64,000 nt of DNA from Planctomycetota bacterium (GTDB taxonomy: Bacteria; Planctomycetota; UBA1135). Made by a program: the position numbers. The number at the start of each line of letters is the position of its first letter. The first letter of the stretch is position 1. Shown here piece after piece: positions 21,001 through 30,000 of this stretch. The stretch covers positions 1 through 64,000 of the forward strand of contig JASFYO010000002.1 of NCBI GenBank assembly GCA_045047305.1, written 5' to 3'.

Positions 21001-24000
21001 ACGCTTATGCGGGCACTTATCGAGCACTGGGCTCTTCGACTTGCGTCGCACAGGCTTACGGCCTTTGCGGACGAGTTGGTTGATGGTTGGCATGCTTAGG
21101 AAAGCTCCTGAACCCAGAGTAAGGGCTCAATCGGGCGTAAAAGTTTATCGTTTCTGCCGCGAAGGTCAAGTTCAAGGCAGGAATTCGGGGCAAATCATAG
21201 ATTCACCCCGATTTTGGAGGCTACTCGGAGGCGCTCTCCATGGATTCGTCAGTGCCACCCTCTTCAGGGGCTCCAACCGGGAGGAAGTCTTCAAACTCAT
21301 CAGCGAACTGCGAGAAGTCAACTTTCTTACTGACACGGGTATTCAACAGCGCACGGAAACCGGTTCCAGCTGGAATCAAGTTTCCAAGGATGACGTTCTC
21401 CTTGAGGCCATTGAGGGTGTCGGTCTTGCCGCGTAGAGCAGCTTCGGTCAGCACCTTGGTGGTTTCCTGGAAGGAAGCCGCCGAGATGAAGGAATCCGAT
21501 TGCACCGATGCCTTGGTAATACCCATGATCACAGGAGCAGACGTTGGCGGCTCTTTATCAGCAGCGTCCATCTCTTCCCGAATCTTGCGGAATCGGTGAC
21601 GGTCAATGAGAGAGTTTGGCAGCAACTGTGAGTCTCCACCTTGCACCACCATGACCTTGCGCATCATTTGTCCCACAATCACTTCTACGTGCTTGTCGTC
21701 GATGATTACGCCTTGTGCGCGGTACACGTTTTGAATCTCGTGAACCATGTATTTCTGAACAACTTCTTCACCGAGAATCTTAAGAATCTCGATTGGAGGA
21801 AGTGGTCCATCGACCAATGGCTGACCAGCACGAATCTTGTCACCACTACTCACGCGCAAGTGCTTGGACTGCGGCACTAAGTGATCGACTTCGACCCCAG
21901 TTTCAGGGTTGGTCACCTTGATGACCCGCTTGCCGCGACGCTTATCCCCGAGCTCGATGATGCCGTCGATTTCCGCCATGATGGCAGGGTTCTTCGGAAT
22001 CCGAGCTTCAAAGAGTTCAGTCACGCGAGGCAGACCACCGGTAATGTCCTGCGTGCCGCCAACGCCTCGTGGAGACTTAGCGAGCAAGGTACCAGCCTTA
22101 ATCTTGGCGCCATCCTTGACTTCAAGGTAAGCGTTCTCTGGCAGGGACAGGTAGTGCAGGACTTCGTCCTTGGCGCCGAGGATGAGCACCTGCGGGTGAA
22201 GGTCACCCTTGGACTCAACGATTTTGCGGCGTTTAATGCCGGACTTTTCGTCTTCCTCAACCACCATAGTGCGGCCTTCCACTACATCTTCAAAGCTAAC
22301 CTTTCCTTCAAACTGGGCAAGGATTGGCATGAAGTGAGGGTCCCAAGAAAGAATCTTAGTTCCCTTGCGGGCCTTCTCCCCATCTGCAACGTAGAGGACC
22401 GAACCCAGGGTCACTTCGTAGCGGTCAATCTCACGGCCTTTAGGATCGCGAATGATAATTTCACCCGTGTTCGAAAGCGCAATAAGGTTGCCGTTTTTGC
22501 CGGGAGTGGTGCGCAGCTCGGTGTAGTGAATGGTTCCAGCGCGACGCATCTTGGTGGAAGACACCACGAGTGCGCGACTTGCAGTACCACCAATGTGGAA
22601 GGTACGCATGGTCAACTGAGTTCCTGGTTCACCAATCGACTGTGCTGCAATAATGCCCGCGGCCAAGCCTAGCTGCACGATTTCACCGCGCGCAAGGTCT
22701 TCACCGTAACACTTAGTACAAACACCGGTCGAAGATTCACAAGTCAAAGGACTGCGAACGCGGATTTTGGTGAAGCCCATTTCCTCAATGCGGCGTGCCG
22801 CTTCGACGGTGATGACTTCACTCTCTCCGACTACCAGCTCATCGGTTACGCGGTCGCGAATGGTGTCTCGCGCAATACGTCCCTTGATGACTTCCTTCAG
22901 TGCTAGAACCTGCTTTTCGCCCTGGAAGACTGCGGTCTTGGATATGCTTCCAAGGGTTCCACAGTCAGGTTCCATCACGACCACATTCTGTGCGACGTCG
23001 GCAAGTTTACGAGTTAGGTAACCAGAGTCAGCCGTTTTGAGAGCCGTATCCGCTAGACCTTTACGCGCACCGTGCGTCGAGGAGAAATACTCCAGCACGC
23101 GCAGTCCTTCACGGAAGTTTGCACGAATCGGAGTTTCGATAATCTCACCAGAAGGCTTGGCCATCAGACCACGCATGCCGGAGAGCTGTCGAATCTGGTC
23201 CACGCTACCACGAGCACCGGAGTGCGCCATCACGAAGACCGGGTTGAGGTAAGGCTTGCCGTCGCGGGTGTCCGCAGCGAGTTCCTTCATCAACACTTGC
23301 GAGACCTCATCACGAGCTGAAGTCCAAAGGTCAATCACCTTGGAGTTACGCTCGTTATCAGTAATCGCACCTTCAACGAAGTCCTTGCGCACGGTGTCGA
23401 CTTCTTTCTGCGTAGCAGCAATGATGTCCCACTTGCTTTCAGGAATCCGCATGTCGTCCTTGGCAATGGAGAGACCAGAACGGGTCGCACCTTTGTAGCC
23501 CAAGGCCTTCAAATCATCCAGTAACCTGAGGGTTGCATCGAGTCCACACATGGAGTGACAGTCATGAATGACGTCACGGATGGATCGCTTGTCCCAAGGG
23601 TGGTTGTAATACGGCATTCCCTCTGGGAGAGCGTCGTTCACAATTACGCGACCTGGGGAAGTGAGAATCGTCTCATCTTCTTTCAACGCGCGATAAGCCT
23701 TGCCATGAGCGACGGCAAGAAGCACGCCCTTGTCAAAGCGCACCTTCACCATCGAATGGGTTTCGATGTGGCCTGCAGCGTAGGCCTGCAACACTTCGGC
23801 TTGAGAGCTGTAACAGCCAGCTAGGGCCCGTCCATCTTCCGTCCACTCATTCACACATTGCTCGCGGTCTGCGGTCATGTAGTAGAGGCCAAGAATGATG
23901 TCCTGGTGTGGGGCGATAATCGGGTTACCGTTAGATGGAGAGAACACGTTGTTGGTGCTCAACATCAAGGTACTGGCCTCCACTTGAGCCTCGTAGGACA

Positions 24001-27000: not shown

Positions 27001-30000
27001 TGTGGTGGACGGGCCGTCAGCAATGATCTCACCTTTCTTGACCTTTTGACCTACGCGAACCAATGGTTTTTGGTTCAAGCATGTGTGCTCATTGGTGCCC
27101 TTGAACTTACGTAGTTCATAGGCCTCCGGATCTTCCTTGATGCGAATCAGTTTCGCATCGACGTATTCCACCGTTCCAGCGCGGCGGGCTTTCACCACCC
27201 AGCCGGAGTTCTCAGCCACCGCACGCTCCATCCCGGTTCCAACCAAAGGTGGCTCGGTGATGATGAGGGGCACGGCCTGACGCTGCATGTTCGAACCCAT
27301 CAAGGCACGGTTTGCATCGTCATGCTCGAGGAATGGAATCAACGATGCCGAGATACCAATGATTTGACCTGGGTCAATGTCGAGGTACTGGACATCTTTG
27401 CCAGACAGCAACGCAAACTCGCCGTGGAAACGGCTCATGACTTTGCCATTCTCGTCGAGGATCAGAGTGCCCTTCTCGTCCATCTTGGCATCTGCTGGTG
27501 CAAAAATGACGTCGTACTCTTCGTCTGCACGAAGGTAAGCAATCTTCTCGGTAGCCCGTCCCTTTTCGATGATGCGATAAGGGGTGACCAAAAAGCCGTA
27601 ATCATCTACCATCGCAAACAAGGCAAGGGAAGAAATCAGACCAATGTTTGCACCCTCAGGGGTCTCAATCGGGCACAAGCGACCATAGTGAGAGATGTGA
27701 ACATCTCGCTCCTGGAAGCCTGCACGTTTCCGGTTCAAACCACCAGGCCCCAGAGCCGATAAACGGCGCTCGTGTGCGAGCTGGGACAACGGATTGGTTT
27801 GGTCAACCACCTGACTCAGTTCACCGCGAGCGAAGAACTGCTCCACCGAAGTGCTGAACGGCTTAGCGTTAATCAGCGCACGTGGGGTAAGGGTTTCCGA
27901 ATCGTCTTCCTGCGACATGCGGTCGACGGCAGCACGAGCCACCTTCAACAAGCCTTTGCGGAAGTCGTCGTGCGCCATCTCTGCGAGGGTGCGCACGCGA
28001 CGGTTACCGAGATGGTCAATATCATCGGTCTCGCCTTCGCCTTTGCGCAAACCGAGAAGGTAATGCACAGAGTCAAGGAAGTCTTCTGGGATGAGAGTAC
28101 GAGGACCCTTATCTGCTTCCACCGGGCGCTTGAACTTGCGATTAATACGGAAACGTCCAACTCGGCCCAAGCTGTAACGCTGGCTGTCGAAGAAACGGTC
28201 CTGTAGCAACTCACGCGCTTTCTCCAGCTGAATCGGGTTGCCCGGACGCAGTTTGGCGTAAATCGCAGCAAGTGCTTCCTCGTGAGTCGTCGAAGTATCT
28301 TCTTTCAACGAATCGAGAATAAGAGTGTCTTCTGGATCAACCAAAAGCGCAATCTCTTTCATGTCAGAAGCAGCGATGCGTTCCGCGGCCTCCTCGGTGA
28401 TGAGTTGTCCAGATTCAGCCCAAACTTCACCGGTGCGCATGTCGCGTACCTGGCTTAAGGCCAAACGGTTTTCCAGCATGCCAGCAAACTTCGCCTTGCT
28501 GATCTTCTCTGGGCGCTTCAGCACTTCCGACTCGTAGAACAGTTTGAGGATTTCCTCATCGCTGCCCCAATCCTGCTGCAGGGCGCGCAACAAGGTTAAT
28601 GCGGAAAATTTACCCTGCTGGTCAATACGGACCTGCAAGGTTCCCTTTCCGGAAACCATGATTTCAACCCACGAGCCGCGCTCTGGAATGATACGTGCAG
28701 AGTGCAGCATCTTGTCTCCAGCATGCTTCTCGACTGCAAAGTCAATTCCAGGCGAACGGTGAAGCTGCGCAACAATGACGCGCTCCGAACCGTTGACGAC
28801 AAATTCGCCACCGCCCATCATGACAGGGATTTCGCCGAGGAAGATTTCTTCCTCGAGACGTTGTTCGCCGCGACGCAAACCCAAGCGCACGCGCAATGGG
28901 TAGGCATAGCTGTACTTTAGCTCTCGGCATTCATCCGGCGTGTAGCGCGGACGGCCAAGGCTATAGCCGATAAATTCCAAGGCAAGAGTCTTATCATGAC
29001 TCTCGATTGGGAAAATCTCGGAGAACAAGGCTTGCAAGCCTTGGTCTTTGCGGCGGCCCGGGGCGGTATCCATTTGAAGGAAATCGCCATAAGACCGACC
29101 TTGTAGGTCGGACAGGCCCGGGAGAAGCGCTTCGTCGCGATACGCGAAGGAGCGGAAGTCACGGACCTCGTAATCCGCGATGTTTTTGCTTTGGACAGTC
29201 ATTCCGGTTGCACCGACAAATCTGGGATGGGTGGGGTGCTTAAAGCCTAAGCAGAGAAAAACCGAGAAAGGTTCTTCCTAGCGATGCCGACCAATGCCGG
29301 CGTTAGTGTTCTCTGAACACGGACCGACCCCGCTACCGTTACTGCAGATGCAGTAACGGCATGCGGGGTAATCTTCGTGGTGGCCGCCGCAGCGGGCCGA
29401 ACGAAGAACTTAAGCAAGCTTGACGGTTGCGCCTGCTTCCTCGAGGGTCTTCTTGATTTCTTCGGCTTCGTCCTTGGACGCGCCTTCCTTGACGGCTTTT
29501 GGAGCCTCCTCTACAAGCCCCTTGGCTTCCTTGAGGCCAAGACCAGTGATAGCACGAACGGCCTTAATCACGTTGATCTTCTTCTCGCCGAAGCTTTCAA
29601 GGATGACATCAAATTCGGTCTTCTCTTCAGCAACTTCTCCACCACCGGCAGGGCCGGCAGCAGCAACAGCGACAGGTGCAGCGGCGGAAACGCCCCAGCG
29701 CTCCTCCATTGCCTTAACTAGGGTCGCAGCCTTGCCAATCGAAAGGGCATCGAGCTGAGTGAAGATGGTTTCGAGCTCGGAGTCGAGCTCAACGGTGTTG
29801 GTTTCGTCGGACATGGGTCTGATTCCTAAAATGCGGTGATTTGGTTTGGGAACTGCCTAGGAGGCAGATTCTCCCTGGTCTGCGCGGGCCTGCAGGACGC
29901 GCGCTGTGGATGCAGGCACCTCGCGCAGCAATGTGGCGAGTTGACGGGCGGAACCGGTAAGGGCGCCACACATCATGGCGCGGAGAGTGTCCTTATCGTG

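Follow-up and report, generated by a model that had tools for sequence, protein, structure and literature searches.

The window, by which we mean the whole 64,000-nucleotide stretch of planctomycete DNA analysed here, carries on its minus strand the genes of the two large RNA polymerase subunits and of NusG, in a genome (G000) of a family that goes by the name given in the survey's note, UBA1135. The rpoB gene (25453..29202, 1249 aa, aligned to E. coli RpoB) encodes the β subunit, and rpoC (21221..25456) encodes β′ as a single chain, a 1411-aa ORF with an ATG at 25441 and an SI3 of ordinary length; an SI3 expansion was discarded, the 174–176 aa found being those of Gre-bearing relatives. The nusG gene (31563..32153) is ordinary, with a loop insertion of a kind also present in families f2, f5, f8 and f10, and NusG as an altered factor was rejected, with diagnostic changes at 6/49 sites against 3–4 of 40–53 in other families and no clear signal.

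The genome-wide survey's note had described the catalytic elements of this polymerase as unaltered, and the alignments agree: the bridge helix (23027..23086) and the trigger loop (22583..22597, with H936 kept) are unchanged, with a derived family change at 0/111 phylum-conserved sites. The cyanobacterial substitutions F773V, A940V and G1136Q are absent as it had stated, with F773, T940 and the trigger-helix hinge residue G1136 (22037..22039) in 27/27 family RpoCs, and the Asp at 792 is indeed common to the lineage (27/27 in the family, 37/37 other order members, and 22/26 phylum outgroups). Position 940 is T, I or V in 24/26 phylum outgroups, V940 itself occurring in five of these 26 and in both f5 genomes.

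The further implication that the polymerase gives no clue was not supported: specific to the family are both β E546Q/K with V547E and a group of clustered clamp changes, and the DksA tip has been remodelled as well. Derived β′ changes at phylum-conserved sites number 34 in the family versus 3 in f9, 5 in f10 and 9 in f7; they affect 21/210 such sites in residues 1–342 versus 13/462 elsewhere (Fisher p = 2e-4, on sites that are not independent), clustering in the clamp (rudder R322Q, lid, and switch 2). Family-diagnostic sites make up 102/1424 in RpoB/C versus 11/329 in six ribosomal proteins (p = 0.009), an excess seen in none of three other families, and the ribosomal proteins are also raised on the family branch (3.3% vs. 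0.8–1.8%).

Along β′, derived changes begin in the N-terminal, zinc-binding region (25181..25318), where W33 in E. coli numbering has become A and, as the last of the series, I78 has become Q, and continue with the lid flanks (24629..24673, D248E and T262S), switch 2 (24395..24397), where position 340 is L in 27/27 family members and E in 37/37 other order members, and the rudder (24449..24466), remodelled at 317–322. The rim helices (23354..23431), the docking site of Gre and DksA, hold W651, mostly A or R at 672 (22/27) and N, T or A at 676, three sites that vary in the phylum too, so that G676 was dropped as a diagnostic change (G in 18/26); E. coli GreB and DksA both need residue 672 for binding. 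The rudder change R322Q is found in 27/27 family members, with R in 63/63 others, and since R322 of E. coli β′ is described as contacting RNA at −6/−7 (PMC5386594), a known RNA contact is removed. The equivalent of K215 (24770..24772) is A, T or G in 27/27; K215E marks an rpo* suppressor site of E. coli, and rpo* changes such as this one are reported, in the passages of PMC9254596 used here, to have hardly any effect on elongation or cleavage in vitro.

In β, residues Q497-E498 (27709..27714), equivalent to E. coli E546 and V547 in fork loop 2 and the CRE pocket, read Q-E or K-E in 25/25 family RpoBs that could be read, one of the 26 aligned being masked there; the non-family RpoBs in the alignment have E/D-V in 32/32. 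A scan of 185,579 species genomes for the Glu547 pattern returned 45 stretches, 44 of them closer to the family RpoB; the only holder outside the family (L318 in genome G388, unpublished) has what looks like an intact Gre (E 6e-26). With Val in place of Glu, the pattern matches 104/121 phylum genomes, with an acid at 546 in all of them (read by eye), and among 150 diverse RpoB representatives, 130 of them readable, 546 is acidic in 127, and 547 is one of Val, Ile, Ala and Met in all 130. V547 lines the CRE pocket (PMC10911233), and the E. coli E546A enzyme elongates twice as fast and pauses less at most positions, although, as far as the relevant part of PMC4499132 goes, it was assayed for pausing rather than for cleavage or Gre dependence. 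A cyanobacterial RpoB (PDB 8SYI) has Ala at 546. With Q-E, the acid may simply have shifted by one residue with its role conserved.

Absence of Gre in the UBA1135 family

The family-wide absence of Gre stood up to three models: the N-terminal coiled coil (PF03449), the C-terminal domain (PF01272) and a 718-position profile built from the order's own Gre proteins each gave 0/49 family genomes, all 49 within the order sample for PF01272, versus 146/152 genomes of the order's other families with Gre in one sample and 201/211 in a second. The order profile recovers 30/30 Gre loci with a worst E of 7e-33, 24 of them from genomes outside its alignment, and controls in the same 48 relatives found RpoC in 47 and DksA in 44. 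In G000, unfiltered HMMs reached no better than E 1.1 with the Gre domain and E 0.053 with the N-terminal region, and the sole weak PF01272 match of the family (in G018, at E 0.0029) falls on the strand opposite a long ORF whose HEIGH motif, read by eye, resembles that of metallopeptidases. The gre gene of one f10 genome lies between two genes that directly abut in G000, and no gene occupies this one traceable slot; the TFIIS/TFS zinc ribbon (PF01096) was likewise absent from G000, the one genome searched for it. Our literature search found no report of Gre loss in the planctomycete lineage UBA1135.

All 49 family genomes are MAGs, 69–92% complete; given that single-contig genomes of the class (G209, G151, G104, and G069) themselves score only 88–94%, the family MAGs at 87–92% are near complete. 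An artefact of assembly or detection, with a divergent gre present yet unseen, is hardly credible, since despite the MAG status of all 49 and the missing nusA match of G000, found in 3/3 other family genomes tested, three models gave 0/49 while only 6/152 were missed elsewhere in the order.

Sister families were said to keep a Gre fusion protein of about 750 aa, and this is right for f5, f7, f9 and f10, while a short protein with the Gre domain takes its place in f2, f3, f4 and f8. The caveat that Gre is also lacking in other families lost its force in f7, where gyrB, the neighbour of Gre, is absent from the same three assemblies, so that these are assembly gaps and a second loss in f7 was rejected; the zinc-finger matches in the Gre-less f7 genomes G054 and G081 belong to a different protein. 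The f6 genome G053 is uninformative, its RpoC match being missing as well, and G147 has the N-domain.

In the RpoC tree, the family is nested within the Gre-bearing order as sister to f5 (support 0.993), which upholds the polarity as a loss; its earlier placement as the deepest branch of the order was an artefact of E. coli-only rooting that vanished after adding 26 phylum outgroups. Distribution and tree together show that gre was deleted once, in the family stem. That it was lost recently was not borne out, the loss being older than the family, which comprises 22 genera and has an RpoC identity to G000 of 72–93% in full-length matches. The family stem is the longest of the order's RpoC tree, tied with a single f3 branch. 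Family genomes range from 1.5 to 5.7 Mb (median 2.8), and Gre is absent even from members of 4–5.7 Mb.

How the family may do without Gre

The reading that we tentatively favour, and hold to be nearly an even call, if slightly on the doubtful side, is that the family copes without Gre mainly by means of a pause-resistant core RNA polymerase on a pre-adapted planctomycete background (Asp792 and β-branched 940). What is observed are the sequences and their distribution, every functional effect being inferred from them. Planctomycete polymerases already carry Asp792 and a β-branched 940, cyanobacteria-like features that speed intrinsic RNA cleavage in E. coli; removal of the acid at β 546 and placement of Glu at 547 would, by analogy with E. 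coli E546A, make the enzyme pause less and thereby backtrack into arrest less often; changes in the rudder, lid and switch 2 may modify how the upstream hybrid is gripped; and Mfd, of which a Mfd-type RID domain was found in a 1099-aa frame, would clear the arrests that remain. Because all of them map to one branch, the polymerase changes and the Gre loss count as a single coincidence. We suggest keeping in mind that this branch is long (0.313), with the ribosomal proteins raised as well, and that sigma, NusG or NusA could instead be what most of the clamp changes follow.

Beyond the order, PF03449 is missing from 18/120 other phylum genomes, and of ten such negatives retested, nine were also without PF01272, as in f36 (2/2), f60 (2/2) and f45 (2 tested of 3). 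The loss in the UBA1135 family is thus probably not unique in the phylum, these candidate absences resting on one to three MAGs each. The candidates (f36, f45, f60, and singletons) keep the acid-546/Val-547 form and lack the acidic DksA tip, and G388 combines Glu547 with Gre; both observations count against the polymerase-based reading, and the idea that Gre loss regularly goes together with the acidic tip or with Glu547 was given up.

These same candidates lend weight to an explanation without any specific compensation, which we consider rather unlikely: Asp792, T/I/V940 and back-ups (Mfd, Rho, UvrD-type helicases, and NusG) would make Gre dispensable and therefore repeatedly lost, with the polymerase and DksA changes of the family serving another purpose or reflecting long-branch drift. 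The frequency of both residues among the phylum outgroups, the smaller family genomes, and Rho-like and UvrD-like motifs in G000 (a motif match only) fit it too. It has to contend, however, with the small number of MAGs behind each of the other absences, with the like pattern in f7 that proved to be an assembly gap, with Gre missing even from the larger family genomes, and with a Glu fixed where all 130 representatives have Val, Ile, Ala or Met, which is hard to call drift.

A DksA protein with an acidic tip

The DksA/TraR protein of G000 is encoded at C21:90041-90409 on the minus strand (zinc finger PF01258 above cut-off, E 3e-9), in the same locus as in relatives (xerD / dksA-lspA-pyrD). Its tip, H-M-A-D as the phylum-wide form and H-[ML]-A-D in 22/22 DksAs from f2, f3, f8 and f9, has become [DE]-x-[DE]-[DE] in the family: three or four acids occupy the five-residue tip window in 44/44 family DksAs read (45 found; three registered by eye), against at most two in 40/40 other order members and in 27/28 phylum proteins. 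When compared with the DksA tip motif DxxDxA (PMC4010833), in a register to E. coli that is inferred, 29/30 family proteins have an acid at each D position, and the last residue is G, S or N. A Pfam search had suggested that DksA is kept where Gre is lacking (13/30 outside the family), and this was rejected after an alignment search found DksA in 23/23 f9, 20/35 f10 and 111/121 phylum genomes; only the tip differs.

This makes it conceivable, albeit improbable, that the family DksA/TraR protein took over the secondary channel as an anti-arrest or cleavage factor, in which case the acidic tip could hold a second Mg2+ as Gre does, or prevent arrest otherwise. Besides the tip counts and the shared locus, a predicted structure is consistent with this: it has the DksA fold, a coiled coil plus globular domain (pLDDT 89) with the tip between helices 13–40 and 48–80, and TM 0.76–0.81 to DksA2 and DksA. 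A predicted complex with β′/β fragments scored 0.51, against 0.00 for the best of three controls, with 88% contact agreement and a partner pLDDT of 73; this is weak support, as the mark was reached by 116/157 solved and 2/215 mismatched pairs, only 18 solved pairs and both mismatches lie at or below 0.60, and because a like complex has already been solved, the score shows likeness only. On the other side, the tip itself (residues 41–50) is modelled at low confidence (pLDDT 56) and interchanges freely between D and E within the family, and rim-helix residue 672 is mostly A or R. According to the pertinent passages of PMC3333854, E. coli DksA fails to stimulate cleavage in spite of two aspartates at its tip, and the inhibitor Gfh1 likewise has four acids there. 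In G001, G045 and G046, continuous contigs lead from xerD to lspA with dksA cleanly missing, so that these genomes have neither gre nor dksA, and G001 retains the Glu547 form. On the polymerase-based reading that we favour, the acid-tipped DksA would be an accessory modulator.

The boldest version, in which after Gre loss the family DksA-fold protein became a transcript-cleavage factor, its HMAD tip turned into catalytic carboxylates as a third independent origin beside Gre and TFIIS/TFS, alongside a polymerase convergent with the cyanobacterial one at β 546, is in our view a long shot. An unrelated, unrecognised protein acting as the cleavage factor has a slim chance indeed: the models run covered only Gre, TFIIS/TFS, DksA, Mfd and NusA, which leaves room for it, while the lack of a TFIIS/TFS zinc ribbon in G000 (one genome) and the empty single traceable gre slot argue against it.

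Known systems and the meaning of the loss

The closest parallel is the Gre-independent cyanobacterial polymerase (PMC7026648; PDB 8SYI, PMC10895346), a type marked by fast intrinsic hydrolysis and resistance to pausing, which, in the parts of these sources used here, likewise has no Gre or TFS beside it and has Asp at β′ 792; a non-acidic β 546 is common to both, Ala there and Gln or Lys in the UBA1135 family. In contrast, the family lacks F773V and G1136Q, has Thr and not Val at 940, an unsplit β′, an ordinary SI3 in place of the giant SI3 that covers the rim helices, a retained DksA, Glu547 and the clamp changes, and its loss is polarised against a Gre-bearing sister family. The same β residue loses its acid in E. 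coli E546A (PMC4499132) and in the laboratory-evolved E546V (PMC10120744), as described there, while in the family the change is natural, fixed and paired with V547E. With the rpo* suppressor polymerases of E. coli, as covered in the passages of PMC9254596, the family shares a changed β′ K215 and a rudder remodelled beside the 312–314 deletion, but β′ K789 and R1148 and β T563 and H1244 are unchanged and the substitutions are others.

The family DksA resembles planctomycete HMAD-type DksA, E. coli DksA and P. aeruginosa DksA2 in zinc finger, coiled coil, fold and locus, and differs in its acid-rich tip and in the position inferred to match A76, mostly Gly or Ser. With GreA/GreB and Gfh1 it shares an acidic coiled-coil tip (D/E-x-x-D/E spacing), without sequence or fold homology to the Gre C-terminal domain. 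In the DksA tip switch, nature provides a test of which features set DksA and Gre apart at the end of the coiled coil.

Life without Gre has so far been worked out in cyanobacteria, where, in the accounts drawn on here, whether Gre was lost or never acquired is open and no close Gre-bearing sister was compared. Since the loss in the UBA1135 family falls on a single branch whose sisters have Gre, it is possible to list the changes that go with it and to try each of them in E. coli. That both lineages have lost the acid at β 546 directs attention to the CRE pocket and fork loop 2 as determining independence from Gre, a proposal that we did not find in the literature searched, and the rare changes at a pause-reducing site, echoed in cyanobacteria, suggest that the UBA1135 family took a second, testable route to Gre-less life.

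Loss of gre in the family

The window carries the ribosomal-protein and rpoBC cluster (rpoC 21221-25456 and rpoB 25453-29202, both on the minus strand) of a planctomycete MAG, G000, of 2.83 Mb in 91 contigs and 87.7% completeness. In its rpsL-rpsG-fusA-rpsJ cluster, the EF-G gene (17669-19693, minus strand) is apparently divergent, and a 156-aa ORF (19690-20160, minus strand), which presumably resembles a Tsr3/DUF367-type protein, lies between rpsG and the EF-G gene; tuf stands separately (32805-34010) next to four tRNAs, and rpsK is followed directly by rpoA (4210-5657), with no rpsD ORF of at least 110 aa between them.

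By itself, G000 is no proof of Gre loss, because it also has no NusA_N match, found in 3/3 other family genomes checked; this gap is one of assembly. Since the loss is an absence claim, it was tested across the 49 genomes (22 genera) of the family, f1, and across the order (equal to the class in the samples drawn) and the phylum, and changes on the same branch were then sought. The best family MAGs are near complete, given that single-contig genomes of the class themselves score only 88-94%. Neither the Gre N-terminal coiled coil (PF03449) nor the C-terminal domain (PF01272) gave a match above cut-off in any of the 49 family genomes, the controls exceeding it in 9/14, and a profile built from 17 of the order's Gre proteins, long N-terminal part included, again gave 0/49; this profile recovers 30/30 Gre loci, 24 of which had no part in its alignment. 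In contrast, 146/152 and 201/211 genomes of the order's other families (two samples) carry Gre, and of the same 48 relatives 47 yielded RpoC and 44 DksA. The genome-wide survey's note had claimed a family-wide loss, and this is now borne out: gre was lost once, ancestrally, and it is scarcely credible that a divergent gre was present and overlooked in assembly or detection. The family's sole weak match, in G018, was rejected as antisense to another gene.

In the RpoC tree with 26 phylum outgroups, the family falls inside the order, with f5 as its sister group (support 0.993), and has a stem length of 0.313. In family f10, gre follows an RlmI-like methyltransferase gene in 5/5 loci, and in one of its genomes, G097, an FG-GAP gene borders the other side; the counterparts of this pair adjoin in G000 with overlapping stop codons (C3:31444-34568), an arrangement that fits a clean deletion, both flanks being defined by one genome, G097. 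A separate loss in f7 was discounted, because the three f7 genomes without Gre also miss gyrB, a gene some 4 kb away from gre in 3/3 f7 loci examined. One f6 genome (G053) has no Gre match, and its RpoC is missing too.

The note's Gre of roughly 750 aa in sister families holds for f5, f7, f9 and f10 (about 730-800 aa) and fails for f2, f3, f4 and f8, where Gre is short. The long N-terminal part (about 570 aa; L042, L044-L055) has only a faint TPR match in Pfam (4 proteins scanned), and frames of long Gre are also widespread in the phylum. The extra short gre of G063 (L007, contig C1), on a stretch of 41% GC, is probably foreign or contaminating DNA.

Changes in the RNA polymerase

Residues are numbered by the annotated E. 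coli RpoB (β) and RpoC (β'). The RpoC alignment held 27 family, 37 other order and 26 phylum sequences, and that of RpoB 26 family and 32 other sequences, with three truncated RpoBs excluded and 22 family genomes not included. The bridge helix and trigger loop are indeed unchanged, with no derived family change at 111 conserved sites; outside these two elements the polymerase has changed to an unusual degree, at β 546-547 and at 34 β' sites among others. These 34 phylum-conserved β' sites compare with 3 in f9, 5 in f10 and 9 in f7, and 21 of them lie within residues 1-342, including the rudder (317-322) and switch 2 position 340. At rudder position 322, Gln is present in 27/27 family sequences and Arg in 63/63 others; R322 of E. 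coli touches RNA at -6/-7, according to passages of PMC5386594. Diagnostic sites, counted unpolarised and not independent of each other, number 102/1424 in RpoB/C versus 11/329 in ribosomal proteins, an excess not seen in three other families. Four β flap changes (E. coli K844, V857, G880, K900) also run throughout the family, and sigma or NusA may have co-evolved with them.

The most clear-cut difference is at β 546-547, in fork loop 2, where 25/25 readable family RpoBs have Q-E or K-E, versus E-V or D-V in 32/32 others. V547 forms part of the CRE pocket lining (a passage of PMC10911233). A degenerate Glu547 pattern found 45 stretches (two from one assembly) among 185,579 species genomes, 44 of them nearer to the family RpoB; lineages with changed flanks would escape, since the pattern requires an intact flanking motif, and its Val version, as a control, matches 104/121 phylum genomes. 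The sole non-family holder, L318 (K546-E547), from the unpublished genome G388 of an unrelated planctomycete, seems to have arrived at this change independently, unless its bin is chimeric. An acid occupies position 546 in 127/130 readable diverse RpoBs (150 returned), and in E. coli the E546A substitution roughly doubles the speed of elongation and reduces pausing at most positions (passages of PMC4499132). Cyanobacteria, also Gre-less, have Ala at this position (PDB 8SYI, a cyanobacterial structure per parts of PMC10895346) where the family has Gln or Lys, and thus two Gre-less lineages are without the same near-universal acid; pause resistance is described for the cyanobacterial polymerase in passages of PMC7026648. 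This parallel was not found in the literature searched, which did not extend to the PMC4499132 supplement (Figure S1 on these segments) and in which the PMC7026648 supplement was nearly textless.

Explanations for life without Gre

The rare CRE-pocket change, the clamp remodelling and the DksA tip remodelling fall on the same branch as the gre loss, and they would lower pausing and arrest. We lean, at a little short of an even chance, towards compensation intrinsic to the polymerase.

Loss without any specific compensation is rather unlikely; several observations speak against the polymerase-intrinsic reading. β' D792 is found in 22/26 phylum outgroups and T, I or V at 940 in 24/26, with V940 in the Gre-bearing f5, so that a pre-adapted background could render Gre dispensable with nothing further changed. 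PF03449 is missing in 18/120 other phylum genomes, and PF01272 also in 9/10 of those retested (synteny unchecked), which makes repeated losses possible; those with a readable motif retain acid-546/Val-547, and the Glu547 holder L318 still encodes Gre, of the short form. Gre-negative genomes include G298 and G377 (f36), G307, G359 (N-domain search only) and G382 (f45), G329 and G353 (f60), and G285, G341 and G346. Changes of the rpo* type, such as K215E, little affect elongation and cleavage in vitro (passages of PMC9254596).

Compensation by the family's own DksA is improbable. The DksA/TraR protein of G000 (123 aa, C21:90041-90409, a locus common to relatives) has a predicted DksA fold, dksA is present in 45/49 family genomes, and the coiled-coil tip carries three or four acids in 44/44 examined. 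The tip reads H-[ML]-A-D in 22/22 proteins from f2, f3, f8 and f9, is eroded in f10, and is mainly H-M-A-D in the best 28 phylum proteins; no family-type tip was seen among 20 further phylum proteins (19 tips readable, by eye), two of which have short acid-rich loops and no H-x-A-D. A predicted complex of family DksA with β'/β fragments scored a weak 0.51 (best control 0.00), which a solved similar complex can explain. Against this role, the DksA of E. coli has two aspartates at its tip and yet fails to stimulate cleavage (passages of PMC3333854; for the motif, see parts of PMC4010833), and in G001, G045 and G046, one clade in a three-gene tree with some genera missing, xerD and lspA flank a dksA deletion; therefore, at least those genomes survive without dksA and gre.

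The last zinc-finger Cys of DksA is His (C-x-x-H) in L234, L236, L239, L241, L242 and L244, a clade of family genera g9, g12 and g13. DksA is also lost or eroded in Gre-bearing families (present in f7 0/11, f5 0/2, f10 20/35), and f9 DksA matches, which exceed the model by about 20-35 residues, are missed by Pfam.

Replacement by an unrecognised factor is very doubtful. In G000, a search for TFS had no match, and one for Mfd found a domain of that type. A weak motif test of the same genome gave one sigma-70 match, and none for sigma-54 or RapA.

Bacterial life without Gre is already known, and the value of this family lies in a polarised Gre loss together with a small set of substitutions that can be tested in E. 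coli.
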